Source: a virus (Duplodnaviria > Heunggongvirae > Uroviricota > Caudoviricetes). Taken from it: a stretch of 45,327 bases of DNA. The first letter of the stretch is position 1. The number at the start of each line of letters is the position of its first letter. The notes below the pieces were generated by a model. The model saw only the letters and a program-made list of their open reading frames with translations. It was not told the origin of the DNA and ran no database searches. The stretch lies in IMG/VR virus record IMGVR_UViG_2737471992_000006, one strand, 5' to 3'. Shown in pieces: positions 1 through 45,327 of the stretch. Both the position numbers and the translations under genes were made by a program.

Positions 1-1038
1 TTAACGCTTATCCGCCACCAGTTTGAGCGCGTGTTCCAGCACATTAATGTCTGCACCCGCTTTATGGGCATTTTCACTTAAATAACGTCGCCACTGCCGC
101 GCGCCAGGAATACCCTGGAACAAGCCCAGCATATGCCGGGTAATATGGCCGAGATACGTCCCCTGGCTGAGTTCACGCTCAATGTACGGATACATGGCGC
201 GCACTACCGCCACCGGATCGGCATCGGTATCCGAGGAACCAAAAATCTCTCGGTCTACCGCCGCCAGAATCCCCGGATTCTGATACGCCTCGCGCCCGAC
301 CATCACGCCATCCATATGTTGCAAATGCGCTTTAGCTTCTTCCAGCGACTTGATACCACCGTTAATCGACATCGTCAGATGCGGAAAGTCACGCTTCAGT
401 TGATACACACGCGGATAATCGAGCGGCGGGATCTCACGGTTTTCTTTCGGACTTAACCCAGAAAGCCAGGCTTTACGTGCGTGGATGATGAACATCTCAC
501 ACTCACCTTTGCCGGAAACGGTGTTGATGAAATCGCAGAGAAATTCATAGCTGTCCTGATCATCGATGCCAATACGCGTTTTCACCGTCACCGGAATCGA
601 CACCACATCGCGCATCGCTTTCACGCAGTCGGCAACCAGCTGCGCATTACCCATCAGACACGCACCAAACATGCCGTTCTGCACCCGGTCAGACGGGCAG
701 CCGACATTCAGGTTGATCTCATCATATCCGCGCGCTTCTGCCAGCTTCGCACACTGTGCCAGCGCCGCCGGATCGCTACCCCCGAGTTGCAACGCTACCG
801 GATGTTCTTCTTCACTGTACGCCAGGTAATCACCTTTACCGTGAATAATCGCCCCTGTGGTCACCATTTCGGTATACAGCAACGTATTGCGGGAAAGCAG
901 ACGCAGGAAATAACGGCAATGTCTGTCCGTCCAGTCAAGCATAGGAGCAATGCTAAACCGAGAATTCCAGTAAACACCATTTTTTTCAGGCATCACGCTG
1001 GTTTGATTAATTTTTTGTGTTTCATGATTATCGTGCAT
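1..1038 (-). CDS. dusA: tRNA-dihydrouridine synthase A (DusA)
   Basis: 345-aa ORF with the TIM-barrel Dus signature and full-length resemblance to E. coli DusA; ATG at 1038..1036, TAA at 3..1. Confidence 0.9.
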
Positions 1039-1126
1039 TTTTGAACATTTCAGGCTATTTTTCTCGCGTTAGGTTCCCGCACAGGTTCCCACGTTTTATG
1101 GGAACCCGAAATAACGAGGTCGTGTA

Positions 1127-2224
1127 ATGGCGTACTATAACATAGAGAAACGACTAAAATCCGATGGCACACCACGCTATCGCTGTAATGTGATTATCAA
1201 AGAAAAAGGGGTTATCACTTACAGGGAAAGCAAAACATTCCCTAAACATGCTCATGCCAAAACATGGGGCACACAGAAAGTGATGGAATTAGATCTACAT
1301 GGCATTCCATCATCAAATGCTGTTGACGGGCTTACAGTCCGTGACTTACTACGCAAATATTTAAATGACCCAAATGCCGGAGGTAAAGCAGGCCGTACTA
1401 AAAGATATGTGCTGGAACTACTTATGGATAGTGACATTTCTGCGATCAGACTATCTGAATTAACAGAAAATGACGTAATAGAACATTGCAGGTTGAGAAA
1501 CAACGCCGGTGCAGGTCCAGCTACTGTTAGCCACGATGTTAGTTATCTTGGCAGTGTTCTGGATGCAGCCAAACCTGTATACGGAATTAATTACACATCA
1601 AACCCAGCAAAAGCCGCTCGTCCATATCTACTTAAACTTGGTTTAATTGGTAAATCAAATCGTCGTAATCGTAGACCAGCATCTGATGAACTAGACATGC
1701 TCATTGAAGGCCTTCAACAACGATCTACTCATAAATGCTCAAAAATTCCGTTCGTTGATATCCTCAAATTTTCTGTGTGGTCCTGTATGCGAATCGGAGA
1801 AGTATGCCGGTTACGATGGGAAGATCTCGACCAGGAACAAAAATCTATACTAGTAAGAGACAGGAAAGATCCACGTAAAAAGGAAGGTAACCATATGAAA
1901 GTGGCCTTGCTTGGGGAAGCCTGGGATATCGTCCAACGACAACCCAAAAAATCTGAATTCATTTTTCCATACAACAGCACTTCTGTTACCGCAGGATTTC
2001 AGAGGGTAAGAAGCAAATTAGGTATTAAAGATCTGCGATACCATGATTTGCGTAGAGAAGGGGCAAGTCGCTTATTTGAGGCTGGTTTTAGTATTGAGGA
2101 AGTCGCCCAGGTTACAGGGCATCGTTCATTAAACGTGCTATGGCAGGTATATACCGAACTGTATCCAAAATCTTTACATAATCGTTTTGAAGAACTCCAA
2201 AGGAGCAGAAATAAGACCTCTTGA
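1127..2224 (+). CDS. int: dusA-associated tyrosine integrase (site-specific recombinase)
   Basis: 365 aa; C-terminal catalytic region with R..H..R..Y pattern (LRYHDLRREGASR ... GHRSLNVLWQVYTELY); GAGG Shine-Dalgarno before the ATG; transcribed divergently from the dusA 5' end. Confidence 0.85.
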   Translation: MAYYNIEKRLKSDGTPRYRCNVIIKEKGVITYRESKTFPKHAHAKTWGTQKVMELDLHGIPSSNAVDGLTVRDLLRKYLNDPNAGGKAGRTKRYVLELLMDSDISAIRLSELTENDVIEHCRLRNNAGAGPATVSHDVSYLGSVLDAAKPVYGINYTSNPAKAARPYLLKLGLIGKSNRRNRRPASDELDMLIEGLQQRSTHKCSKIPFVDILKFSVWSCMRIGEVCRLRWEDLDQEQKSILVRDRKDPRKKEGNHMKVALLGEAWDIVQRQPKKSEFIFPYNSTSVTAGFQRVRSKLGIKDLRYHDLRREGASRLFEAGFSIEEVAQVTGHRSLNVLWQVYTELYPKSLHNRFEELQRSRNKTS

Positions 2225-2249
2225 CACTGTTTATTCATACAGTTAAAAA
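2221..2249 (+). promoter_or_regulatory. sigma70-like promoter for dinI (TTGACA -35, 17-nt spacer, TAAAAA -10)
   Basis: Perfect TTGACA at 2221..2226; A/T-rich -10 candidate at 2244..2249; overlaps the LexA boxes. Confidence 0.35.
2225..2244. promoter_or_regulatory. LexA (SOS) box 1, CTGT-N8-ACAG
   Basis: cactgtttattcatacagtt: CTGT at 2227..2230, 8-nt spacer, ACAG at 2239..2242, inside the promoter spacer. Confidence 0.5.
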
Positions 2250-2252
2250 TAA

Positions 2253-2272
2253 TACTGTATACAAACACAGTA
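2253..2272. promoter_or_regulatory. LexA (SOS) box 2, near-consensus
   Basis: tactgtatacaaacacagta matches the TACTGT-N8-ACAGTA consensus; lies 14 nt upstream of the dinI ATG. Confidence 0.65.
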
Positions 2273-2285
2273 TAGAGGGATTTTT

Positions 2286-2534
2286 ATGCGTATTGAGATC
2301 TGCATAGCCAAAGAGAAAATGACTAAAATGCCAAACGGTGCTGTGGATGCGTTAAAGGAAGAATTAACTCGACGCATCAGTAAGCGTTATGACGATGTAG
2401 AGGTGATCGTAAAAGCCACCAGCAACGATGGCCTTTCTGTTACGCGCACCGCCGATAAAGATTCAGCTAAAACTTTTGTTCAGGAAACTCTGAAAGATAC
2501 CTGGGAGTCTGCTGACGAGTGGTTTGTTCATTAA
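2286..2534 (+). CDS. dinI: DinI-family DNA-damage-inducible protein (RecA modulator)
   Basis: 82 aa, acidic C-terminus typical of DinI; GAGGG Shine-Dalgarno; two LexA boxes upstream. Confidence 0.85.
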
Positions 2535-2600
2535 TTAATACGTAAAATCGATAACGGCTGGAAATCATTCAATACTCGCACTATCGGAAGTTCACCAGCC

Positions 2601-2640
2601 AGCCGCAGTATTCTGCCATGACAAGTTGCTGCGGCTTTTT
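2601..2640 (+). terminator. candidate intrinsic terminator after dinI
   Basis: Inverted repeat agccgcag / ctgcggct followed by TTTTT; the loop is long (20 nt), so the call is weak. Confidence 0.3.
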
Positions 2641-2644
2641 ATGT

Positions 2645-2932
2645 TTAACGGATAAACAGCCAGACCAGCAGACACGCCATCACCGGCACAGCAAAATCCA
2701 TCAGGCTTGCTACATCCCACACGCGCGGATCAAAACCGCCCCACCACGGCATATTCATACGCTTGCCATGTCCGAACATTTCAATCCAGCGATATTCTGC
2801 CTGGGTGTGTTCACGCGCAATGAAGAACGTACAACCGGCTATCGCCCCGTAAGCCCAGTTTCCGGTAAAAAGACCAGCCAGTACCTGCACCGCTATGGCA
2901 CAAAGCGCATGAAGTATCGACGTGATATCCAT
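2645..2932 (-). CDS. small hydrophobic membrane protein at the tail-fibre operon end (unknown function)
   Basis: 95 aa with hydrophobic segments at both ends; same strand and tight spacing after the stf-coupled ORF. Confidence 0.5.
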   Translation of the reverse strand: MDITSILHALCAIAVQVLAGLFTGNWAYGAIAGCTFFIAREHTQAEYRWIEMFGHGKRMNMPWWGGFDPRVWDVASLMDFAVPVMACLLVWLFIR

Positions 2933-2941
2933 CTGCTATCC

Positions 2942-3220
2942 TTAAAACCACTCCCTGAGCGGGCGCTCTGGTGTAACCACCCACTCACGGAACACGGAAT
3001 CATCAAATCCATCGTCAAGAAGACGGATATTAACAAAGTACCCTTCGTTTCGCGTGTATTCTGGTTCTCCGTCATCAGGAACATCTGTCTCCCTGAACGT
3101 AAAACCAATCTCATCAACCAGAACGGCATTCTGCAGCTCTTCGTCCTCTTCCCAGTTAAGTTTCCTGAGAAATGCCCTGAAATCTGCTTTATCACTGAAA
3201 CGCAACGTGAAATCTCTCAC
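2942..3220 (-). CDS. hypothetical acidic protein translationally coupled to stf (possible fibre chaperone or accessory protein)
   Basis: 92 aa; GTG start at 3220 overlaps the stf TGA (GTGA); it sits where lambda has tfa but does not resemble lambda Tfa. Confidence 0.45.
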   Translation of the reverse strand: MRDFTLRFSDKADFRAFLRKLNWEEDEELQNAVLVDEIGFTFRETDVPDDGEPEYTRNEGYFVNIRLLDDGFDDSVFREWVVTPERPLREWF

Positions 3221-5283
3221 TCCACAACCTCCCCAAGCTGCGCATCTGTTAGCTCTTTATGCCAGAGACGAAAATTCCTCACATGCCCAAATAAATGGCG
3301 TAATCCTGCTGTAGTTTGTCCACCAATGCGAATGGTTGCTGTACTCCGGATATATTCCCATTTGGTTTTAGTTTCGCTGCTTAACTTACCGTTACTGACT
3401 ACACATGTGGACCGTTCGGACTTTACCCGCATACCAATAAGCATTTTTTCCAGCCCGGCATTTTCATTTATTCGTCGGTCTGAACCACCTATATCGCAAT
3501 ACGGAAAACCGTCGTACCCACCTGATGAACCAAACCCCATTACGATCCCCGCTCCGGTTTGATGACCGCCGGTATCAAAAACACGCGGCGCTACATTTGG
3601 CGTTTTATACCAGTTCTTATGTACCTCACAAAGAACCGTAAAAGGAAGATTATAAAGGTTATTCTTGATTGGGACTGTCACCATATCGCTTGCCCGCGTT
3701 GCCGGTGTCGTCCCCGTAACAATAAAAGATGATGTGCCTGTACCAGCCTCAATCTGTGGAGTGGTTACATCGAGATAATCCCCTGATGCAACCATCTGCC
3801 CTGTATCCGGAGAATACTGGACAAAACCACCAACCGTATTTTCTGTTGTATCTGCTTTTAATGTAGCCTCAAAAAATATCCAGCCAGTTGCATCATCCTT
3901 AACAGACCTTGCTGTAACACGGCTTGTCTGACCTGTCTTGCTAATTATGCGGGTGGTAAGGTTCAGGTTTGCTGCTCCTATTGATGTCCTTACCTCCCCA
4001 TCATAATGTTCAAATAAAATACGAACGGCGATATTATCAACTTCACTTTTTACCCGACAGGATATAGTTACATGCTTTTCGTCCCCTGAAGTATCAACCC
4101 CTCCGGTACTCGAATACAGTCCGATAATGGTATGCGCTTTACTTGTACCAACAATCGAATCCTGTACGACAAACCGGCCATAATTAAACCCGAAACTATC
4201 TGTGCCTGTTTCTGTAACGTCCAGTGAAGTTGACTTATTCCACTTCGAAGGGTCTGTACTGTTCTGGAAGAAGTTCGTTCTTTGTCCCTCAATAAGCAGG
4301 CCATCACACTCAAATCGCGGCTCATTAATTTCCGCCGTTTTCAGTTCGCCAGATTTGTTGATATATGTTGCCGTTGATGCGCGACTGAAATTAACCTGTT
4401 TATCACTGGCAACCTGAACCACATTATCACCAATCTTCACTTTTTTATAACCCGGAGAATAGCCCGTAATCATATCCAGCGAATCATTAAAGGGTATCCA
4501 CACATCCGGCAGCGGCTGTAAAACATATCTGTACGGCTCTGCTGTCTGGTTTGCGTATTCTCTGGCAGCATCTTCACTTGCTTTTGCTGCCGTCTGGCTT
4601 GCTGCCGATGCTTTCGCCGAGTTCGCCGCCGCTGTTTCGCTCACCTTTGCGTTGGCTTCACTGTCTTTGGCATTCGTCTCACTGGTTTTCGCTGCCGTCT
4701 GGCTGGATTTTGCGTTTTTTTCGCTGGCCTTTGTGGCTGTCTCGCTATTTTTCGCGCTGGTTTCTGATTTTTTGGCTGCTGTCGCGGAGTTTGCCGATGC
4801 AGTCTGCGAGGCCGCTGCCGCCTGTGCGCTGTTAGCTGCATTCGTTTCTGAGGTTTTCGCCGCATTCTTCGATGAGGCTGCTGCCGTTTCGGATTTCTTT
4901 GCCGCCGCTGCACTCTGTGATGACGCTCCGGCATGACGTGCCACTTCATTCACCATCAGCTCAAAACGGCGCAGTGCCTCCGGACGGGCATCATCCTCCG
5001 TCATGGCACCGAGAAAATCATTCAGCGTACCTGGTCTGGAACCTTCATAGACGGTAATGGTCCCGGCATGTGAAGGTGGAAAACCTTCAACCAGCAGGGT
5101 GACGCTGTACTGACCATGCTCAACATCCATGCTGTAACGCCCGGCTTCATCCGGATTTTCAGAGGCCACCGTGTTCACCAGTACCGTGGTGCTGTTACGC
5201 TTTGCCTTCAGTTGAATAGTGCAGTTCTGTATTGGTTTTCCCGCACCATCTTTCAGCACACCTGAGATTTTTACTGCTGCCAT
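3217..5283 (-). CDS. stf: side tail fibre protein (lambda Stf-like N-terminus, divergent C-terminal receptor-binding region)
   Basis: N-terminal ~120 aa closely resemble lambda Stf (MAAVKISGVLKDG...TITVYEGSRPGTLNDFL); ATG at 5283 preceded by GGAG; central Ala/Ser/Thr/Lys repeats; C-terminus resembles a lectin/LamG-like jelly-roll (my reading). Confidence 0.85.
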   Translation of the reverse strand: MAAVKISGVLKDGAGKPIQNCTIQLKAKRNSTTVLVNTVASENPDEAGRYSMDVEHGQYSVTLLVEGFPPSHAGTITVYEGSRPGTLNDFLGAMTEDDARPEALRRFELMVNEVARHAGASSQSAAAAKKSETAAASSKNAAKTSETNAANSAQAAAASQTASANSATAAKKSETSAKNSETATKASEKNAKSSQTAAKTSETNAKDSEANAKVSETAAANSAKASAASQTAAKASEDAAREYANQTAEPYRYVLQPLPDVWIPFNDSLDMITGYSPGYKKVKIGDNVVQVASDKQVNFSRASTATYINKSGELKTAEINEPRFECDGLLIEGQRTNFFQNSTDPSKWNKSTSLDVTETGTDSFGFNYGRFVVQDSIVGTSKAHTIIGLYSSTGGVDTSGDEKHVTISCRVKSEVDNIAVRILFEHYDGEVRTSIGAANLNLTTRIISKTGQTSRVTARSVKDDATGWIFFEATLKADTTENTVGGFVQYSPDTGQMVASGDYLDVTTPQIEAGTGTSSFIVTGTTPATRASDMVTVPIKNNLYNLPFTVLCEVHKNWYKTPNVAPRVFDTGGHQTGAGIVMGFGSSGGYDGFPYCDIGGSDRRINENAGLEKMLIGMRVKSERSTCVVSNGKLSSETKTKWEYIRSTATIRIGGQTTAGLRHLFGHVRNFRLWHKELTDAQLGEVVE
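4560..4950. repeat. in-frame tandem repeats encoding the KxSExxAxxS shaft of Stf
   Basis: Reiterated gc-rich units produce long spurious ORFs in all other frames here. Confidence 0.6.
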
Positions 5284-5347
5284 ATCCACTCCACAAAAAA
5301 GCCCGCCTGAACCGGCGGGCTGTCATAACACTGTGTTACCTGGCTAA

Positions 5348-5947
5348 TCAGAACTTATAACCGACACCCACGATGAAACCGTCAGCGCGCCAGTCGCCAC
5401 TGCCGGAGCCTTCATAAGCAATATCAATGGCCACGGATTCGGTCGGGTTAAACTGCACGCCAGCCCCCCACGCCAGAGACGTGTTGCTGTGGCGATCGTC
5501 ATCACTTCCGGTCAGCACGTCGTGCGTTTTCCCCTTGTTGTCAGTTACGCGGAGATAATCCCCGGAGAACGTCGAAACACGGCTGTAAGCCACACCAGCC
5601 ATCGCATACGCGCTGAACCATTCATTCACGCGCACAGACGGCCCCGCCATTACGCTGAACCAGCGGTTACGCACGGAATCTTCATGCCAGCGGGTATCGC
5701 TGTAGTGCGTTTTTTTCTCATCTTCAGCATTGGCATAACTGAAGGACGTAATCAGCCCCAGCGTGTCCGTAAACTCATAACGGTATTTCACGTTAATCCC
5801 GTTCAGATTATCGCTGCCGGGAGCGTTCGTACGGGCATGAAGATACCCTGTGCTCAGTGTGGACTGATGTTCAGACGCCCATGCAGGCGCACCGGATACG
5901 GACAGACAGATGGCTGCGGACAAAATGGCTGCACAAACTTTACGCAT
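5348..5947 (-). CDS. lom: Lom outer-membrane protein (Ail/Lom family)
   Basis: 199 aa, near-identical in pattern to lambda Lom (signal peptide, ...GFIVGVGYKF end). Confidence 0.9.
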   Translation of the reverse strand: MRKVCAAILSAAICLSVSGAPAWASEHQSTLSTGYLHARTNAPGSDNLNGINVKYRYEFTDTLGLITSFSYANAEDEKKTHYSDTRWHEDSVRNRWFSVMAGPSVRVNEWFSAYAMAGVAYSRVSTFSGDYLRVTDNKGKTHDVLTGSDDDRHSNTSLAWGAGVQFNPTESVAIDIAYEGSGSGDWRADGFIVGVGYKF

Positions 5948-6014
5948 AATTACCTCTCGCTTTTCTGCAATAAAAAAGGCACCATTTCTGGCGCCCGTAT
6001 TGGGGTTATAAAAT

Positions 6015-9000
6015 TCAGCTAATCGTGATGCCTGCAGTGGCTTTCTTCATCACAACAACCAGCAAATCGCTGATACTTGCTGTGGGATACCAGCCATTTA
6101 CCCACCATGCTGATACAGAAAACTCCAGCGTCATGTGGCCGCGACCAGCAGGCATATCAATAACACCACTGTAAACCAGCGTATTATCCAGCGCGGTACG
6201 GTTATAAATTTCAGCACCGTTTTTCTTCACTATCAGGCGGCATGACGAATAAGTATCGCTGTTCTCCTGCTCATGTCTGGCACCGCTGAAAGCCACCGCC
6301 GGAATAACAATCTGCCGGTTAAACGGCTGATCGTCATAAACCCTGACGGTAATGGTTCCTGATGGCCAACGCTTCGGTGCACGGGAGTCACGAGGGAAAG
6401 CCTTACCCACTGTTTTAACGAGATCGCCTTCAATCTGGTTTGCAGACAGTTTCCCTCTGATGACACAGTTCTCGTTAATGGTGACATTATTGAGCGTGCC
6501 GGTATTCGCCGTGATGGCTCCACTGATATCCGCATTGCGGGCTGTCAGCCTGCCATCCGGCGTCAGGGAAAACGTAGGAGGATTGCCGGATGACGTGATG
6601 CTCACCGCAAACAGTCGCTTCAGGAACACGTCGTTCATGAACAGCTGATTCCCCTGCGCCACAAACAGCGGCGTGGTGTTGCCGTTCTCCGGGGTAATCA
6701 TCGCGATACGGTCCGCCTGCAGCAGAATACTGCTCAGCGTCTGACCATCAACATCCTCAATCCCCGCGCCAATCCCGGCCACATAGGGAATACCGTTTTT
6801 TGTTTTCTGCACCTTCAGCATATACATGGCATTCAGCTCATTGCGCGTGTCTGACTGAACCCGCTGGATTTGCTGTATGGTCACGGCCTGGTCACCCAGC
6901 TTTTTATCCGTGGTCGAGGTAATTTCACTCCCTTTTTTATCCACGTACTGGCGGACCTGTGCTATCTGTCGGGCGTTTTCTGACTGCCCCTGGCTGACAG
7001 TCTGTGAGATTTCACTGCTCACCCGGTCCACTTTCTGGCTCACCTGCGCGATGGCCAGTGTCTGGTCCTCATTCTTTTTCGCAACCAGCTGCGTGAGGCT
7101 GTTTTCCGCCTTCCCGATTTTCCGGGTCACTTCTGCGATATCCGTGTCCATCCGCTGACGGATATCTTCTTCCAGTTGCGTGACCTCCGTACGCAGCGCT
7201 GAAGCATCAATGCGCTCTTTCAGTGCCTGGCCCAGAAGCGTCTCATCTATCAGCCCCCGGAAAATTTCCAGATACCCTTCACCATCATTGCTGGGCTGCC
7301 CGCTGGCTTCCACAAAAGCAGATTTTCCCACCAGGTTGACGCTTCGCACGTAAAACCAGAAATCCGTCCCCGGCTTAATCCGGCTCCCCTGGACAGTCCA
7401 CTGACTGCCGGTCCCCAGATAACGGGCAGATTTTTCCACCTGTGCTGTGTTCGTGATGCGTTTTTCTGAGAACCAGAATTCAAACTGTACCGTCGGGTCA
7501 TACACCGCAAGACGCGGGACCGCCGTTATCTGAAAATACCCCGGCGTCAGCTCAATGGTGGCGGGTTTTGCAGGTGCGTTAATCCGGAACGATACCGACG
7601 CCGGATCGCCCTGCTGTCCCCGGGCATTTACCGCCCGGACCGTCAGCGTGTAACGCCCCAGCGCCAGCTGCCTGAAGCGGTAAGTGGTTTCCGCCGTCCG
7701 GGCCGTGCTGACCAGCCGCTCACTGCCGTCATCCGCTGTTACGGTCAGACGGAGCAGGAAGCTCACGCCCTTCACCACCTTCGGCGTGTCCCAGCGCGCC
7801 AGCACCTGATATTCCCCGCTGTCTGCGGTAACTTCGGCGGTCAGGTGCTGCACCGCTGGCGGCGTGACACCATTCACCGTGCCGCTCTGGTCGCCGTCAA
7901 AGTGCGCCCCGTTATCCACGATGGCCTCTTTTGCCGGTACATGCTGCACGGCGGTGATGGCATGCGTACCGTCGTCATTCTCACGGATACTCACACAGCG
8001 GAACAGGCGCTGGCGCAGCGTCGGCAGCTTCAGCCCCCACACGCTGTATCCGGCAACGCCGTCAGGAACACGGCTCACTTTCACCTTCACACCGTCGGTG
8101 ACGGACTGGACCTCCACGCTGACCGGATTCCCACTTCCGTCAACCAGGCTTATCAGCGTGGTGCCGGAGGATGACAGCATGATTTCACGGTCGAGCGTCA
8201 GCGTCCGGGTCTGGCTGTTCACCGCCAGCACGCGACCACCGGTGCTGATACCGGCATAGTCATCATCACAGATTTCAATGACATCGCCCGGCACATGGCG
8301 AAGCCCTTCAGCACCCACGCTGAAGTCCACGGTCTGCGTTTCCAGCAGCTCTGTTTTAATCAGCCACAGCCCGGCGCGGTGTGCCTGCCCCCGGCTGGTA
8401 CAGCCAAAGGCATCCATCTTCGTGACATTACGACCGTAACGGGCAATGGCCCGCGTGTCCTCCACAAGCTCTGTCGCCGTCTCCCAGCCGTTATCCGGAT
8501 CAATCCAGTTCACCTCAACGGCATTATGACGGTCCTTCAGGGCGCTGAAGCTGTAGCGGAACGGCGCGCCATCATCCGGCATCACCACATTACTGCGGTT
8601 ATAGGTCCACACCTTATCCGACGGTCGGTCCTGCACGAACGTCAGCGTCTGCCCGTTCCATACCGGCATACAGCGCATCGCCGAGCAGAAATCACTGAGC
8701 ACATCCCACGCCTTGCGCTGTGTGGTCAGGTAAGCGTTACAGGTGATGCGCGGCTCCGTGCCACCAAAGCCATCCGGCACTGACTGGTCGCAGTACTGGC
8801 CGATGACATACAGCGCCCATTTATCCACATCCGCCGCACCAAGACGTTTCCCCATGCCGTAGCGCGGGTGGGTCAGCATATCCCACAGACACCATGCCAT
8901 GTTGTTGCTGTATGCTGGCTTAAACGTTCCGTCCCAGATACCGCTGTATTGCCGCGTCTGCGGGTTATAGTTCGACGGCACCTGCAGAATGCGCCCGCGA

Positions 9001-24861: not shown

Positions 24862-25137
24862 TTATACAGCCCTTGCATGAATGGCATCGGGATAATCCAG
24901 AAAGGAATAGCATCGACCCACAAGAATCTGTGTGAGTGTCCTGTTTCTTCCACCCCCGCACAGGACTGGCGAGCATGAGGGACAACCCCGCGAACCATAA
25001 CCGCGCTGATGACAGGACTGGCCCGGCTTGTATTGCTTCCAGCCTTCGCTTTTGTGGCTTTTGCAATAGCCTGACGGATCTGTGGTGGTATTGCGGTAGC
25101 CGCGACCACGGCAGGTTTTTGGGGTTCGTGGGGGCAT
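24862..25137 (-). CDS. Cys-rich small ORF, possibly a degenerate HNH-type endonuclease gene
   Basis: ATG at 25137 preceded by GGAG; the 91-aa product is Cys/Arg/Gly-rich. Neighbouring frames carry HNH-tail-like fragments (LSRCHSC), so the gene may be frameshifted. Low confidence. Confidence 0.25.
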   Translation of the reverse strand: MPPRTPKTCRGRGYRNTTTDPSGYCKSHKSEGWKQYKPGQSCHQRGYGSRGCPSCSPVLCGGGRNRTLTQILVGRCYSFLDYPDAIHARAV

Positions 25138-25360
25138 ATGTACTCCAATGAAGAAGCCACCAACATAGCCTCCTCCATTTATCGTGAAACTATTTTCATC
25201 TACCCAGTAATGAATTCTTTGAAGAGTCGAGATCAATACAACTCACTGATGGGAGAGGCTTGTCTCACGCGTAAGGCAAGTTTCCTGTTTGATTTACTGG
25301 ACAGTATAGGGGGGCAGAATGCCTTCCTCACTCGAATCACATCAATTAAGGAGGTTCAAC

Positions 25361-25483
25361 ATGTTTCATTCCACAAGTCATCAGGCTGTAATTATGGCAG
25401 CATCAGTTTGTGCCACAGACCTTTTCCGCTTCACTTTGAGCCTGATTCATTTCTACCTGACCGGCTCGCCTCTATCTTTCTAA
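25361..25483 (+). CDS. 40-aa small ORF with a strong ribosome-binding site (not in the ORF track)
   Basis: TAAGGAGGT, 6-nt spacer, ATG at 25361, TAA at 25481..25483; moderately hydrophobic product. Could be chance. Confidence 0.2.
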   Translation: MFHSTSHQAVIMAASVCATDLFRFTLSLIHFYLTGSPLSF

Positions 25484-27837: not shown

Positions 27838-28890
27838 TTATTTCCCCACCAGCTCGTTTATCTCTTTCACTGTCTGGTTAAACCGCTCTGACTCAAGCTC
27901 AACACCTAAGGCCCGACGCCCCAGCGCCATTGCTGCTTTTATTGTGGAACCGGATCCCATAAAAAAATCAGCAACCAGATCACCAGGTCGACTACTGGCA
28001 TTGATTATTTGCCTGAGCATATCCGCCGGTTTCTCACACGGATGTTTACCCGGGTAGAACTGAACGGGTTTATGCATCCAGACATCGGTATAAGGCACGG
28101 AGACTGATACGGAGAAATAGCGCCGGAGAGATTTAAACTCATCCAGCAATTCAGAATATTTGCGATTCAGTGAATCATAAGATGCCACCAGCTGGTGGTG
28201 TGGTTGTTCCAGTTGTTGTTCCTGAAACTTCTCTGCCGCTATACGGGAAAACAGTGCCTGTAACTTCCGATAGTCAGCCTCATTCGGCAACTGCCACTGA
28301 CTGGCACCAAACCAGTGGGAAACCATATTTTTCTTACCTGTGGCTTCGGCAATTTGTTTTGCCGTTATACCCAGTTCGGCACGAGCATCCCTGAAATACG
28401 ATATCAGCGGTGCCATTATGTGCTGTTTGAGTTCCCTTTCTTTTGCCGCATAGCCGTCACTTTTGCCGCGATATGGCCCCTGGTAATGTTCAGCAAACAG
28501 AACGCGCTCTGTGGCAGGAAAATATGCGCGCAGACTTTCTTTATTACACCCATTCCAACGTCCGGACGGCTTCGCCCAGATGATATGGTTAAGCACGTTG
28601 AAACGTTCACGCATCATGATCTCAATATCAGATGCCAGGCGATGCCCACAGAACAGGTAAAGGCTTCCGGCAGGTTTTAACACCCGCCAGAACTGGGCCA
28701 GACAGTGGTCCAGCCACTTAAGGTAATCTTCGTCCCCTTTCCACTGATTGTCCCAGCCGTTGGGTTTCACCTTGAAGTACGGCGGATCGGTAACAATCAG
28801 GTCAATGGAATCATCAGGCAGGGACTGAATAAAATGCAGGCAATCAGCGTTGATTAAATCAACACTGTTTATTTTTACAGTATTTTTCAT
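27838..28890 (-). CDS. orphan DNA amino-methyltransferase, beta-class (DPPY before FxGxG)
   Basis: 350 aa; motif [10 protein letters not shown] near the N-terminus and AdoMet motif FFMGSGST near the C-terminus; no restriction partner nearby; weak Shine-Dalgarno. Confidence 0.8.
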
Positions 28891-40981: not shown

Positions 40982-41567
40982 TTATCAGGCGCTACGGGAA
41001 CGTTATTCACCTAAGCCAGTACCTGAATGCTCTGTTTGTGGCGAGGAAATGTCAATACAGCGTATATCTGGAGCACATGTCACTTATGCCTGCTCCGGTT
41101 ATGGTGGTGATGGAGATTTCAAAATTGGTCGCACACTTGCCGACGAGCATTATGAAAAATCACGCGTAACAGTAGTTGATGACAGTGACCCTGATGTGAT
41201 TGCACTACTGGACGAACTGGAGGCAGCAAAATTAAAACTCAACGAGCAGCGTGAGTATTACGAAGGTGTTATCTCGGATGGGAGTAAGCGTATTGCTGAA
41301 CTGGAAGCACGGGAAATAAAACCAGCCAAAGGCGAAGTTCTTGTCGTTGTCTCTGGTTTTACTGGTTGCGGGAAAAGCGCCATTGCCGGGGAAATAGAAA
41401 TTGCGATGAAAGCTATTGGTGTGCCGGTTCAATGGACTAATGGCGATGCAGAAAAGCATATGACCGGCGCTGACTGGCTGACAGCGATTGAGATGTACAA
41501 ACCAAATGTGCGCATCGTGGAAGTTAATGTGTCACGCGCCGCAGGCATTCGCATCAAAGGAGAGTGA
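40968..41567 (+). CDS. hypothetical protein with N-terminal CxxC zinc-ribbon-like motif, coiled coil and C-terminal Walker-A-like P-loop
   Basis: 199 aa; GTG start after AAGGAGG; CSVCGEE near the N-terminus; GFTGCGKS near the C-terminus. Confidence 0.6.
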   Translation: MSEIDYQALRERYSPKPVPECSVCGEEMSIQRISGAHVTYACSGYGGDGDFKIGRTLADEHYEKSRVTVVDDSDPDVIALLDELEAAKLKLNEQREYYEGVISDGSKRIAELEAREIKPAKGEVLVVVSGFTGCGKSAIAGEIEIAMKAIGVPVQWTNGDAEKHMTGADWLTAIEMYKPNVRIVEVNVSRAAGIRIKGE

Positions 41568-41568
41568 G

Positions 41569-41760
41569 ATGAACGGACAAATATCAATTGTTCGACCGGG
41601 AGCATGTGACGATTGCGAGATACGAATGATTATTCGTCTGGCGAGGGGGAAAACAATAACTGCTCTCATTACTCCTGAAAATCTCGCATTAGCATTAACA
41701 GGAAAGTCAGACCTGCCAGTAGAGCTAAAGCTGCGAAATATTGAGATTAAAGTGAAATAG
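41569..41760 (+). CDS. hypothetical small protein
   Basis: 63 aa; ATG at 41569, 2 nt after the upstream stop, with AAAGGAGAG Shine-Dalgarno. Confidence 0.5.
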   Translation: MNGQISIVRPGACDDCEIRMIIRLARGKTITALITPENLALALTGKSDLPVELKLRNIEIKVK

Positions 41761-41762
41761 TT

Positions 41763-42440
41763 ATGAATACTCTTACCAAAGAATGGTTACAGAACACGAT
41801 TACCGGAATTGAGTCGATAATAGACGATAAATCGTTTGTATGTAGTGAAATAGCATTCGAAATAGGTCAGGTTAACAACATACTTACCGCATTTAAAATT
41901 GCACTGGCATCGCTGGCAGCAAAACCGGTGGTTTACATGTGGGATAGCGAAAGAAAAGATATTGATGCCCCTGGGTATTATCGGACTGAGCATTTAGTGT
42001 TCGCTGAGAGTAGTGTTAAGAAATGGGGAGGACGAGTTGTTCCACTTTACACCGCCCCGCCAGCGACGGTAGTACCGGATGAACGTGCAGCTTTCAATGC
42101 CTGGAACAACGACGAGAACCTACCCATAGCTGGTGTCGGCGCAAAAAACGCTGCCTGGTTAGCTTGGCAAGCCCGCGCTGAGTTGGGCCGCTCGTTAGCC
42201 GTAAACTCTCCGGTAACTCCGGATGGTTGGATAAGCTGTAGTGATCGAATGCCTGAAAAGGGCCAGAACGTGCTTATTTCGGTGAATTTCGATAGCTCTC
42301 TGGTTGAACCGCTAATATGCTCCGCACGCTATACCGGAAGCACCTTTCGGCGCGGAGATGCAACGATTAAGCCGGGTAATGGTATTGAGCAAGCAACTCA
42401 CTGGATGCCGCTACCGGAACCGCCGCAGGAGGTGAAGTGA
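41763..42440 (+). CDS. Ead/Ea22-like protein with C-terminal DUF551-like domain
   Basis: 225 aa; C-terminal ...THWMPLPEPP motif typical of DUF551 as I recall it. Confidence 0.65.
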   Translation: MNTLTKEWLQNTITGIESIIDDKSFVCSEIAFEIGQVNNILTAFKIALASLAAKPVVYMWDSERKDIDAPGYYRTEHLVFAESSVKKWGGRVVPLYTAPPATVVPDERAAFNAWNNDENLPIAGVGAKNAAWLAWQARAELGRSLAVNSPVTPDGWISCSDRMPEKGQNVLISVNFDSSLVEPLICSARYTGSTFRRGDATIKPGNGIEQATHWMPLPEPPQEVK

Positions 42441-43012
42441 TGAACAACTTAATGATCGACCTTGAGACGATGGGGAAAAATAAGGATGCACCGATCGTTT
42501 CCATTGGCGCGGTGTTCTTCACTCCAGAAACCGGAGACATCGGACAAGAATTCTATACGGTGGTTAGCCTGGAAAGTGCTATGGGGCAAGGAGCTACACC
42601 TGACGGCGATACCATCCTGTGGTGGTTGAAACAAAGCCCTGAAGCGCGAGCTGCAATCTGTATTGATGATACTTTGTCGATCAGCGATGCTCTCTCAGAA
42701 CTAAACCATTTCATTAACCGGCACGCAGACAATACGAAATATTTAAAAGTCTGGGGTAACGGGGCCACCTTCGACAACGTAATTTTACGTGGAGCTTATG
42801 AGCGAGCAGGACAAATCTGCCCGTGGGCATACTGGAATGACCACGATGTACGCACGATCGTTACGCTTGGGCGTTCCATCGGATTCGACCCCAAAATGGA
42901 CATGCCTTTCGATGGCGAACGGCACAACGCCCTGGCCGATGCCCGTCATCAGGCAAAATATGTTTCCGCTATCTGGCAGAAATTAATTCCTGCCACCAGC
43001 ACAGAATTATGA
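42440..43012 (+). CDS. DnaQ-like 3'-5' exonuclease (DEDDh)
   Basis: 190 aa; IDLETMG (Asp/Glu motif) near the N-terminus and HNALADA near the C-terminus; GGAGGTG Shine-Dalgarno; ATG overlaps the upstream stop. Confidence 0.75.
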   Translation: MNNLMIDLETMGKNKDAPIVSIGAVFFTPETGDIGQEFYTVVSLESAMGQGATPDGDTILWWLKQSPEARAAICIDDTLSISDALSELNHFINRHADNTKYLKVWGNGATFDNVILRGAYERAGQICPWAYWNDHDVRTIVTLGRSIGFDPKMDMPFDGERHNALADARHQAKYVSAIWQKLIPATSTEL

Positions 43013-43048
43013 TTTTCCCGGGTGCAGCCGGTTTTGATGGAGAAAATT

Positions 43049-43330
43049 ATGAACACCTTGTTTTTACTGATGGCTGAATTCAATACCCCTAACATTGAAC
43101 TCTCAGCAGTTAGCCAAAAGTACTTTGGCATGAGTCCAGCCACGGCAGAAGCAAAAGCAAACGCTTGTAAGTTGCCCGTTCCAACATATCGCATCGGCAC
43201 ATCACAAAAAGCAAAACGTTGCATCAATATTCAGGATCTTGCGGAATACATAGACAAAAGACGAGAAGAAGGACGTATCGAGTGGGAACAGGTCAGAACA
43301 GGCAAACAGAAGGGCAAAGAACATCACTAA
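43049..43330 (+). CDS. PrtN/excisionase-like DNA-binding protein (Xis candidate)
   Basis: 93 aa from the ATG at 43049 (GGAG Shine-Dalgarno); ...LPVPTYRIGTSQKAKRCINIQDLAEYIDKRR pattern of PrtN/AlpA-type excisionases. Confidence 0.6.
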   Translation: MNTLFLLMAEFNTPNIELSAVSQKYFGMSPATAEAKANACKLPVPTYRIGTSQKAKRCINIQDLAEYIDKRREEGRIEWEQVRTGKQKGKEHH

Positions 43331-43332
43331 AG

Positions 43333-43421
43333 AAAAAACGCATAAAGGCCAATGCCGTTCACTTAAGATGAGCGGCTCTGCATTTCACCAGATAATGGTG
43401 TTTTGATATCTTAATTTCCCT
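43333..43421. repeat. left arm of a ~90-bp imperfect inverted repeat flanking the CoiA-like gene
   Basis: Reverse complement of 44585..44674; core tttcaccagataatggtKttttgatatcttaatttccct matches at 38/39, plus cgttcacttaag and aaaaaacgc blocks. Confidence 0.8.
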
Positions 43422-43520
43422 CGGCTCTGATAGTCGTGGGCATTTTGTTATGAACACAATATCCAGAACATCCAGCAGATGTTCCTGTCATTTCGGGATG
43501 GCTACGAGGATAAGACAGCA

Positions 43521-44555
43521 TCAGAAAAACATTTCAGCTTTTTTACCATCAAATATCCACCCGCTGGATAAGATTTTCATATTGCTAGCATAAGTAAAAG
43601 TAAATTCTATCATTATCTTTTGTTTATCATTCGGATAGTCGAAAACCTCTAATAAAAAGCAATCTCCTATAAGTGAATAACAATGTATGCAACCGTTAGA
43701 TAAATAACAATCACTGTCTCTGTCCTTAACAGTACCAATTCCAGCCGCCCAGAGTTTTTTGTTATCCACGTGAGTGGCTATTAGTTCTTTGACATCAGAA
43801 TCACGAAAAGATAAAAACTTGACGAATACTGATTTACTGTAAACAGAAATCCCCCTGATAATTCCAGTTCGTTTTTTACATCTCCAGCATTTTGTAACTC
43901 GCGATTCTATTTTTGCAGTCAGCACATCCCCAACCTTTGGGAACCATAATAGCTTTCTGGCGAAAACACCCGCGATAAACTCCCTGACACTAATCCCAAA
44001 CTGCGGTAGATACAAGTCCCCATTTTCATTCTGACGCACACCAAAAACAGGTAAATCGTAGCTATGGTATATATCCCCACCATGCTCTTTACTTCCTTTA
44101 CGTAACTTTCGCAACCACAGTGCACGGACTCCTGATGCGATATATCGTTTTTGACGTTCTTTAAACTCATCGTCTTTTTGCGGTGATAGCTGTACTTCGA
44201 AAACCAGTTTCGCATTATTTCTGGTACAAAACACATCGGCAATCCATTCTTCTCCTGCTGGGGTCACCCCTTGTTTTTCGGTAGTAACTGACCAGCCAGC
44301 ATCACTGGCTAATTTTGCGATTAAGAATTTGAGATATAAATGTTCTGCGCTTTCTTTCGCATACAGGCAATCGCTTTTGGATTTATGGGAAAAGTAATAG
44401 TTATTAAGTTTACTTGTTTTAGGTATACCAAGCTGGCCACAGCACGACATAAACAAAGACTGGCTTTTATATGTCTGTTTAAGATGTTCCCATTCCTGAG
44501 AGTTAAATTCAAAAGAATGAATTTCTTTTCCGTTAAGTGACGCTTTTAGTGGCAT
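43521..44555 (-). CDS. CoiA-like (competence-protein-CoiA family) predicted nuclease
   Basis: 344 aa; N-terminal zinc-finger pattern F.SCCG...YFSHKSKSDC...KESAEHLYLK characteristic of CoiA proteins, then a PD-(D/E)xK-like core (IADV ... FEVQ); AT-rich gene. Confidence 0.7.
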   Translation of the reverse strand: MPLKASLNGKEIHSFEFNSQEWEHLKQTYKSQSLFMSCCGQLGIPKTSKLNNYYFSHKSKSDCLYAKESAEHLYLKFLIAKLASDAGWSVTTEKQGVTPAGEEWIADVFCTRNNAKLVFEVQLSPQKDDEFKERQKRYIASGVRALWLRKLRKGSKEHGGDIYHSYDLPVFGVRQNENGDLYLPQFGISVREFIAGVFARKLLWFPKVGDVLTAKIESRVTKCWRCKKRTGIIRGISVYSKSVFVKFLSFRDSDVKELIATHVDNKKLWAAGIGTVKDRDSDCYLSNGCIHCYSLIGDCFLLEVFDYPNDKQKIMIEFTFTYASNMKILSSGWIFDGKKAEMFF

Positions 44556-44584
44556 TCATGCTACCTGTATTTACCCTCCCAGCA

Positions 44585-44674
44585 AGGGAAATTAAGATAT
44601 CAAAAAACCATTATCTGGTGAAACGCAGTACCACCACACTTAAGTGAACGACATTATGCCTAAAGGCGTTTTTT
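44585..44674. repeat. right arm of the inverted repeat
   Basis: See left arm; the outer boundary (gcgtttttt) abuts the stop of the 57-aa gene. Confidence 0.8.
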
Positions 44675-44694
44675 AAAAAATCACCACCTATGAA

Positions 44695-44868
44695 TCATAC
44701 TGCTTTGCAACGACGAAGCTTACCCTGCTGCTCTTTACCAGAGACAGTAGCGTGAGTGAACGCATTAGGAGCAGCCTTCATCAGAACTTCAACAGCCGCA
44801 CCCATACCTACGAATGCTTTCATTGTGTCGAACTTAACCTGTGGCTTGGTTGCTTTTTGATCTTCCAT
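44695..44868 (-). CDS. 57-aa small protein, second gene of an AT-rich two-gene operon (not in the ORF track)
   Basis: ATG at 44868 preceded by GGAG (8-nt spacer); TGA at 44697..44695; 39 nt downstream of the 139-aa gene. Confidence 0.45.
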   Translation of the reverse strand: MEDQKATKPQVKFDTMKAFVGMGAAVEVLMKAAPNAFTHATVSGKEQQGKLRRCKAV

Positions 44869-44907
44869 AGAAAACTCCAGAAGCTATACCGAAAAAATTC
44901 CTGTTGT

Positions 44908-45327
44908 TTACTCATCATCAATAGATGATACGCAATATTTATTTTTAAATTTAAGGTTCTTTGGCGTAACTTCATCAGATATATCAAAACCGTCCAGAAT
45001 TCTATTGAATGTAGCTTCTGGCATATCATCATGAACAAAAATCTCACCCGATCGCTGCTTTCTAACCATGTTATCCACTCGCCAAATTATAGCTTCAGCG
45101 TAAACAACATAACTTGGATGCTTGATAAAGCGATGATCACCAGAATTCAAGACGCAAGACGGATCGTGGGGGACACCATCCTTGATACTAGAAATATTAA
45201 CAACTAAAACACAATAACAATCGTTAACGGGGTAATAAACAGGATCATTACAAATCACATGAAGATGATTGCATGGCCCAGTTGGGGCAAGCACAGTTCC
45301 TTTCCTGTATGGCTGATAATCCGTCAT
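44908..45327 (-). CDS. 139-aa hypothetical protein, first gene of the operon (Cys/His/Asp-rich)
   Basis: Complete ORF (ATG is the last three bases of the window, TAA at 44908..44910); AT-rich; no recognised family. Confidence 0.55.
   Translation of the reverse strand: MTDYQPYRKGTVLAPTGPCNHLHVICNDPVYYPVNDCYCVLVVNISSIKDGVPHDPSCVLNSGDHRFIKHPSYVVYAEAIIWRVDNMVRKQRSGEIFVHDDMPEATFNRILDGFDISDEVTPKNLKFKNKYCVSSIDDE

Follow-up and report, generated by a model that had tools for sequence, protein, structure and literature searches.

A dusA gene with a phage-supplied 5' end at the left junction of an mEp460-like Escherichia coli prophage

The stretch of DNA analyzed here, IMG/VR record IMGVR_UViG_2737471992_000006 (45,327 nucleotides [nt]; hereafter the window, whose coordinates we use throughout), opens with dusA, a tRNA-dihydrouridine synthase gene, and continues into the genome of a tailed phage. 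The window is almost certainly the left 45.3 kb of a ~46-kb, mEp460-like lambdoid prophage of Escherichia coli, inserted into the 5' end of dusA by a tyrosine recombinase of the dusA-associated integrase (DAI) family. We place equally high confidence in the accompanying insertion model, in which phage DNA supplies a new, chimeric start to the gene. The features on which this reading depends are the following:

1–1038, minus strand: dusA, 345 amino acids (aa; Pfam Dus, E=7.8e-105)
1–934, minus strand: host-derived dusA body, codons 36–345 and part of codon 35
935–942: attachment (att) core TCAAGCAT, the attL copy; dusA nt 97–104, codons Met33-Leu34-Asp35
943–1038, minus strand: phage-supplied 5' coding segment of dusA, codons 1–32
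1127–2224, plus strand: tyrosine recombinase gene (int; Pfam Phage_integrase PF00589, E=9.6e-21), divergent from dusA with 88 bp between them

We aligned the att sites of lysogens, empty sites and virions: attL from the window and from the lysogens R11 and NR3736, attR from R11 and NR3736, attB from the empty sites of S4 and HB101, and attP from the virion genomes of mEp460 and SKA5. Statements about attR and other sequence beyond the window rest on two proxy lysogens, NR3736 (the main one) and R11. NR3736 is 99.7% identical to the window over 1–9000 and 100% identical over 41000–45327, and it is colinear with it except for one extra segment of ~287 bp; R11 is 100% identical over 1–2300, with divergence by BLAST after ~2.9 kb and at the far end.

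The octamer TC(A/G)AGCAT, window 935–942, is the sole block common to attL, attR, attB, and attP. With slashes marking the core, attB reads CCAG/TCAAGCAT/CGGGGCAAT in S4, a B2-type empty site, and CCAG/TCGAGCAT/TGGTGCAAC in HB101, a K-12-type empty site; attL of the window reads CCAG/TCAAGCAT/AGGAGCAAT; attP of mEp460 and SKA5 reads CCTA/TCGAGCAT/AGGAGCAAT; and attR of R11 and NR3736 consists of CCTA, the core, and the native dusA end. Left of the core, attL carries host sequence and attR carries phage sequence (ACATCCTA); right of it, the phage sequence is in attL (beginning AGGAGCAATGCTAAACCG) and the host sequence is in attR. The attP of the two virions equals exactly the left side of attR, the core, and the right side of attL, the dusA-like 5' segment included, and it is the attP predicted for the excised circle. 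The att repeats of the two prophage ends, taken from the window and the proxies, share the pattern C.TCC..TC(A/G)AGCAT.GG.GCAA. A comparison of R11 with NR3736 marks the host/phage boundary independently, since the two are identical from 938 onward but differ at ~25 sites within the dusA body as well as at core position 937. One free-phage record, that of Escherichia phage Lys8385Vzw (MT225100), carries the 8-bp core twice in tandem (TCGAGCATTCGAGCAT; locus L008, 2990–3006) in a sequence labeled circular, most likely an artifact of joining prophage ends that each include the core.

We found no second att site in the window, where the core with its flank occurs once only, at 935–950, and the phage P-arm/core junction was not found there even with 3 mismatches allowed. 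An earlier reading of the window from its sequence alone (the sequence-only reading) had likewise put attR outside it. In NR3736 the core of attR is reached 824 bp beyond the window end, and next to it comes a 105-nt fragment that RefSeq calls a "truncated tRNA-dihydrouridine synthase"; the attR of R11 carries a B2-type native dusA end. The displaced native 5' end is thus present at attR in both proxies.

The dusA body is host DNA, with 99.8% identity to prophage-free S4 over 1–951. Homology to this B2-type site ends at the core plus a 9-bp flank (window 951), and the distal 99 nt are 39% identical in an ungapped alignment. Against the K-12-type site of HB101, the distal 98 nt are 81.6% identical (18 mismatches) and the gene body ~96%. 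From 943 rightward, everything is phage DNA. The sequence-only reading had named two outcomes that would speak against it, a dusA 5' end identical to prophage-free alleles and the absence of a repeat of that end at the far side; the 5' end differs from both types of allele and the native end lies at the far end, so both comparisons came out the other way. Its proposal that the phage supplies the N terminus of DusA stands, but its estimate of about 15 residues does not: the phage contributes 32 residues of the annotated 345-aa ORF (open reading frame), or 17 if translation starts at Met16.

Because the phage codons are fused in frame, dusA remains an intact ORF of 345 aa, and its β1-strand residues RFSIAP are kept. 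These residues are identical in the phage segment and the B2-type native sequence, and they align with the start of the Thermus thermophilus Dus structure 3B0P. As only four residues precede the equivalent of RFSIAPM in the sequence of that structure, the structurally required part of the phage contribution would be RFSIAP, in agreement with Farrugia 2015. The protein is annotated as DusA, under one accession, in two lysogens. In our set of 5426 complete E. coli genomes, the phage-type 5' segment occurs in 742, and 734 match at least 80% of a 1–2300 query covering dusA and int; the carriers (~14%) include O157:H7, O111, and O103 strains. The idea that the dusA body moved between lineages together with the prophage was rejected, the body in NR3736 being K-12-like with ~25 differences from that in the window.

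Int contains the catalytic residues R222, K258, H306, R309, H332, and Y342 with XerD-like spacing, and searches of NCBIfam with it gave only sub-threshold matches of XerC/XerD/XerA type. It shares 356 of 365 residues (98%) with Int of mEp460 and is 55–72% identical to integrases beside dusA in Mixta, Pectobacterium, Morganella, and Xenorhabdus. At the DNA level, window 935–2300 is matched at 95–97% by 1720a-02 (96.6%), mEp460, SKA5, and other phages. By its sequence, int belongs to the dusA-associated tyrosine integrases (Int-dusA or DAI family), for which the criterion given by Farrugia 2015 is a tyrosine recombinase with an RHRH tetrad and a nucleophilic Tyr. Its start codon lies 184 bp from the core, divergent from dusA.

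The remaining features of the prophage that bear on integration and excision, and the cargo next to attP, are these:

2286–2534: DinI-like gene, adjoining the 3' side of int
3217–5289: tail fiber gene, lambda type
43022–43330, plus strand: PrtN-family ORF (Pfam PyocinActivator PF11112, E=4.2e-23; RefSeq start at 43049)
43521–45327, minus strand: cargo block between rdfN and attP
43521–44555, minus strand: CoiA-like nuclease gene, cargo
44695–44868, minus strand: small ORF, cargo
44908 onward, minus strand: ORF of 128/139 aa, cargo
to 45327, minus strand: Panacea-domain gene with its last 4 bases in the window, cargo

Int is divergent from dusA and sits beside the dinI and tail fiber genes, as the sequence-only reading described. 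The excisionase candidate that it placed ~41 kb away corresponds to the PrtN-family ORF, 40.8 kb from int in the window; in mEp460 the homologue of this ORF is annotated as an excisionase and lies across attP from int. The ORF is a homologue of RdfN, a recombination directionality factor, and by analogy it would act in excision: Rivard et al. 2021 (PMC8409611) identified RdfN experimentally as the excision factor for dusA elements. The circular order of excisionase, cargo, attP, and int that had been predicted is seen in mEp460-type phage genomes, and the placement of int and rdfN on either side of attP is typical of the family (Rivard et al. 2021). Homologues of prtN were present in 60 of 94 dusA islands (Farrugia 2015).

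The gene order from left to right, namely tail, head, terminase, lysis, Q, replication, immunity, and early-left operon, is that of a complete-looking lambdoid prophage. The early-left operon ends with an exonuclease gene and then the PrtN-family ORF, from which minus-strand cargo extends to the window end. NCBIfam returned no match for the excision-factor and cargo ORFs, and PADLOC none for the cargo ORFs; the cargo possibly includes a toxin-antitoxin pair. The slot between rdfN and attP (window 43521–45327 together with locus L005, 3908–4896) appears as a variable cargo site, and in R11 it holds a different module consisting of a YafO-family toxin and a hypothetical protein (locus L001, 14613–15603).

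In the model that we favor, the DAI tyrosine integrase would insert the circular phage into the dusA 5' end, with strand exchange at attB across dusA nt 97–104. attP lies between the rdfN/cargo end and int and consists, in order, of a ~64-bp P arm bearing two GGYTCCC repeats, the 8-bp core TC(A/G)AGCAT, a 96-nt imitation of dusA, an 88-bp P' arm with three repeats, and the int start (ACATCCTA/core/AGGAGCAATG). Integration yields an attL that fuses the host dusA body to phage codons 1–32 and would bring in a phage extended −10 promoter. It would also yield an attR, ~0.8 kb beyond the window, that orphans the native 5' end and its promoter; this attR would read AGGTTCCCAATAGGCTCCCAC-N43-TC(A/G)AGCAT and then the native dusA 5' end, which is expected to be of the B2 type in view of the B2-like dusA body. 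Excision would employ Int and the PrtN-like RdfN, whose genes would be ~3 kb apart in the circle and are 41 kb apart in the prophage. The junctions, the match of attP to attR-left plus attL-right, the family of the integrase, and the intact chimeric ORF are shown here; catalysis, dependence on RdfN, promoter use, arm-site binding, and the choice of start codon enter this scheme from the literature or from conservation. Its elements between dusA and int are:

1039–1126: P' arm, the dusA-int intergenic region, 88 bp; GGTTCCC/GGGAACC three times, at 1071–1078, 1083–1090, and inverted at 1099–1106
1134–1142, minus strand: candidate extended −10 element TGTTATAGT, directed toward dusA, inside int codons 3–6

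The 45-kb window has just two copies of AGGYTCCC, both within 1071–1090, with the inverted copy at 1099–1106; the 11.8-kb far-end locus likewise has just two, 44–62 bp left of the attR core. These five copies on two arms are good candidates for arm-type sites that Int may bind. In related elements from other genera, a group of repeats with another sequence is found in a similar place. The repeats of the P' arm go with the integrase lineage, being GGGGTGCT, GGTGTCC/GGACACC, or GGTGTAC (loci L056, L062, L078, L080; L058, L063; L067), as against GGTTCCC here, a pattern consistent with arm-type sites that have evolved together with their integrase. In related elements of Mixta, Morganella, and Xenorhabdus and in int stubs of other genera, the TGTTATAGT motif lies across the start of int, 181–210 nt from the core, and Enterobacteriaceae conserve it as the promoter motif of native dusA. 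As a candidate recognized by conservation, it is likely to be the dusA promoter in the lysogen, with a predicted transcription start on the minus strand near 1127 (within ~5 nt).

Several observations weigh against this account. In R11 and NR3736 alike, core position 937 (A/G) agrees with the host attB allele at both attL and attR, while G is the base in the free phages that have been sequenced. Simple exchange with a phage whose core has G would not leave host-matching bases at both junctions, and the pattern calls for either heteroduplex resolution or conversion within the overlap, or phage sublines whose cores match. As for the attR of the window itself, it lies beyond the window end, and we infer it from NR3736, which is identical over the last 4.3 kb, and from R11. 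A scan of 850–1300 for consensus sigma-70 promoters and terminators found nothing, the extended −10 element having come from conservation. Finally, the NR3736 copy carries several annotated gene fragments, which bears on whether such a prophage is inducible today.

A different explanation of the left junction would have the prophage inserted in intergenic DNA upstream of an intact, native dusA, the 5' end then being a K-12-like host allele. The segment does have the length and frame of the K-12-type native end in addition to its 81.6% identity, and Megablast alignments of prophage-free K-12-type genomes extend to 1041. Yet the same 5' segment adjoins attP in the packaged genomes of the free phages mEp460 and SKA5, lysogens of B2-type and of K-12-type hosts carry identical copies of it, and the native end has been displaced to attR; moreover, 18 mismatches in 98 nt from the K-12-type end stand against only ~4% divergence in the gene body. 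The attP and attR comparisons refute intergenic insertion, to which we assign a negligible probability.

The fate of the gene and of the prophage leaves more latitude. Integration might have inactivated dusA, making the 345-aa ORF a fortuitous fusion that is unexpressed or nonfunctional. The empty sigma-70 scan would fit this, as would the lower dusA expression that followed integration of a related element (Rivard et al. 2021). That study nevertheless found dusA expressed after integration, the ORF is intact, keeps RFSIAP, and is annotated as DusA in two lysogens, and the 96-nt length, the ATGCAY start, and the extended −10 motif are kept across elements of several genera; we regard inactivation as quite improbable. 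A less remote prospect, though still an unlikely one, is that the prophage is locked in and decaying, no longer excises, and has att sites of historical meaning only. The fragments in the near-identical NR3736 copy, of HNH, Rz, capsid, and ead/Ea22 genes, speak for decay, but Int, RdfN, both att junctions (the right one from the proxies), and full sets of head, tail, and lysis genes are present, and close relatives have been isolated as viable phages. Decay in any case concerns present activity and not the identity of the junction.

The arrangement at the dusA site that our model describes is already known, in agreement with Farrugia 2015, Balasubramanian 2019, and Rivard 2021. Closest to the window are mEp460 (NC_019716), SKA5, mEp460_4F5, PhiR40_1, and Lys8385Vzw, which share with it the order rdfN, cargo, P arm, core, dusA-like 5' end, int, dinI, and tail fiber. 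Their P arms are near-identical to that of the prophage, and the 99 nt distal to the core are 92–99% identical; they differ in the rdfN-attP cargo and the tail fiber region, and the window is an integrated copy from an uncharacterized strain. Farrugia 2015 lists mEp460 Int as a DAI homologue and E. coli dusA lysogens in Table S1. Phage 1720a-02 (Phi-stx2dact; KF030445), 96.6% identical in DNA to the window from core to int, was shown experimentally by Balasubramanian et al. 2019 (PMC6328086) to integrate 100 bp into dusA through a 7-base core, with an in-frame phage "dusA'" ORF, int beside attL, and attP regenerated in vivo; the core position in the window agrees with that published site and core. 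1720a-02 carries stx2 and was studied in Citrobacter rodentium; stx is not among the gene names annotated in the matching stretch of NR3736, the window itself not having been searched for it.

More distant systems share parts of this plan. The DAI islands of Farrugia 2015, such as Acinetobacter baumannii D1279779_RGP05 and Pseudomonas protegens Pf-5 Prophage 03, resemble the window in their target, semiconserved att repeat, element-supplied 5' end with its β1 strand, and prtN homologue, and differ in genus and cargo. IMEVchUSA3 and the Vibrio dusA islands (PMC8409611) also have int and rdfN across attP and a new N terminus, and in this related case the element brings a new, working dusA promoter (Rivard et al. 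2021); unlike the prophage they are mobilizable, dependent on IncC plasmids, and not phages. Lambda likewise combines a tyrosine integrase using core and arm sites with a small excision factor. However, in lambda int neighbors xis on a single side of attP and the target is intergenic, whereas in the window element attP splits int from the excision-factor gene, the target lies within a gene, and attP embeds a gene-repair segment.

The insertion into dusA is therefore a correct but ordinary finding, and the only part of this analysis that may be new concerns the native gene of most E. coli. The 5426 genomes divide without remainder into 1123 with the B2-type end (MPAESHTVYPAYRFSIAP; one of them an O25b:H4 strain) and 4303 with the K-12-type end (MHGNSEMQKINQTSAMPEKTDVHWSGRFSVAP), and it is at the att core that homology between them breaks off. 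We consider it probable, while allowing real room for doubt, that the K-12-type dusA 5' region is a relic attL left by an element that targeted dusA. The end of the B2 type, together with its promoter (TGCTATAGT, ~90 nt from the core), has orthologs in Salmonella (MQPETQSSAFPAYRFSIAP), Enterobacter, Kluyvera, Pseudescherichia, Phytobacter, and others, where the promoter lies 90–101 nt from the core. The K-12-type end has ATGCAC exactly 96 nt from the core and its promoter motif at 179 nt. The 96-nt spacing recurs at the phage junction in the window, with which mEp460 aligns gap-free over the 96-nt segment, and in 13 of 80 species loci. Integrases are intact at four of these 13 element-type loci, and int stubs of 19–92 codons are present at no fewer than three, a fourth match being too weak to count. 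The K-12-type segment is 82–84% identical to the phage 99-nt segment and has no other match. In HH97, which is without the DUF2713 gene, a K-12-type segment of ~181 nt is directly flanked by B2-like native upstream DNA. The loci compared were HB101 (L003, 4943–5134), HH97 (L091, 3492–3680), S4 (L002, 3943–4083), and Salmonella (L090); the last of these, AFYI01000007.1, is a 501-kb Salmonella Infantis chromosomal contig within a "phages" collection.

Element-type dusA 5' ends that have no intact integrase (loci L028, L048, L059, L061, L063, L066, L074, L077, L078, L080) were seen in Kosakonia, Erwinia, Photorhabdus, Moellerella, Morganella, Xenorhabdus, Yersinia, and other genera. At several of these loci no more of int is left than its first 19–92 codons, and most have ATGCAY exactly 96 nt from the core with poorly conserved sequence between. 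The signature that we used to recognize such ends was the 96-nt spacing together with the promoter distance; an "MH" start was rejected as a sufficient signature, as Yersinia has MHEAQ with zur nearby. A position of zur beside dusA was likewise rejected as the ancestral state, an outer-membrane-protein gene lying between the two in Enterobacter, Salmonella, and Kosakonia. That some E. coli have the DUF2713 gene and others lack it reflects an event separate from the replacement of the 5' end.

In the history proposed for the relic, an element would have integrated at the core, and the whole element, attR, and the native 5' end would later have been deleted. Such a deletion could have joined the promoter/int-start motif of the element (TATG.TATAGTA) to the identical native promoter motif, which would produce exactly the structure seen in K-12 and HH97: a 96-nt coding imitation and ~82 nt of P' arm under the native promoter. 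The chief competing idea is that the phage took its copy from a host end of the K-12 type. Copying would leave unexplained the break at the core, the element-like spacing, and the ATGCAC(G)A(A)AAT start common to elements of other genera. A relic copy of the attR core was not found within 4 kb upstream of dusA in any of the 80 species loci. In Rivard et al. 2021 (PMC8409611) the K-12 end is taken to be native, and the authors describe the N terminus of their element as of "identical length" to it (35 residues), with 61% identity, as expected if both ends are of the element type. Our literature search, which was limited, found no paper stating that the K-12 end derives from an element.

If the relic reading is true, the first 32 residues of the reference DusA (MHGNSEMQ...) are of mobile-element origin, and the split between annotations of ~331 and 345 aa among E. 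coli lineages is explained. Similar relics, some with int stubs of 19–92 codons, would then exist in Photorhabdus, Xenorhabdus, Kosakonia, and other genera. Site-specific integration at a 5' end could permanently rewrite the N terminus and leader of a core gene across most of a species, and work using the K-12 dusA end as "native" would be comparing two element-derived ends. For the window itself the consequences are mainly ones of annotation. The true left end of the prophage lies inside dusA, at 935–942; the DusA of such lysogens is a host-phage chimera; and what is annotated at the far end as a 105-nt "truncated dihydrouridine synthase" is a displaced native start, not a decaying gene.

Two further observations concern the interior of the prophage. 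The one departure of NR3736 from colinearity lies at 27980–28554 (locus L006), ~287 bp longer than window 25074–25361; BLAST identified the difference as an extra adjacent copy of a segment, and Tandem Repeats Finder reported no repeat around it. Between the int stop and the dinI-like gene are two LexA-box-like sites (CTGT-N8-ACAG), at 2227–2242 and 2255–2270, and the window as a whole contains 4 such sites, with 0.59 expected by chance.

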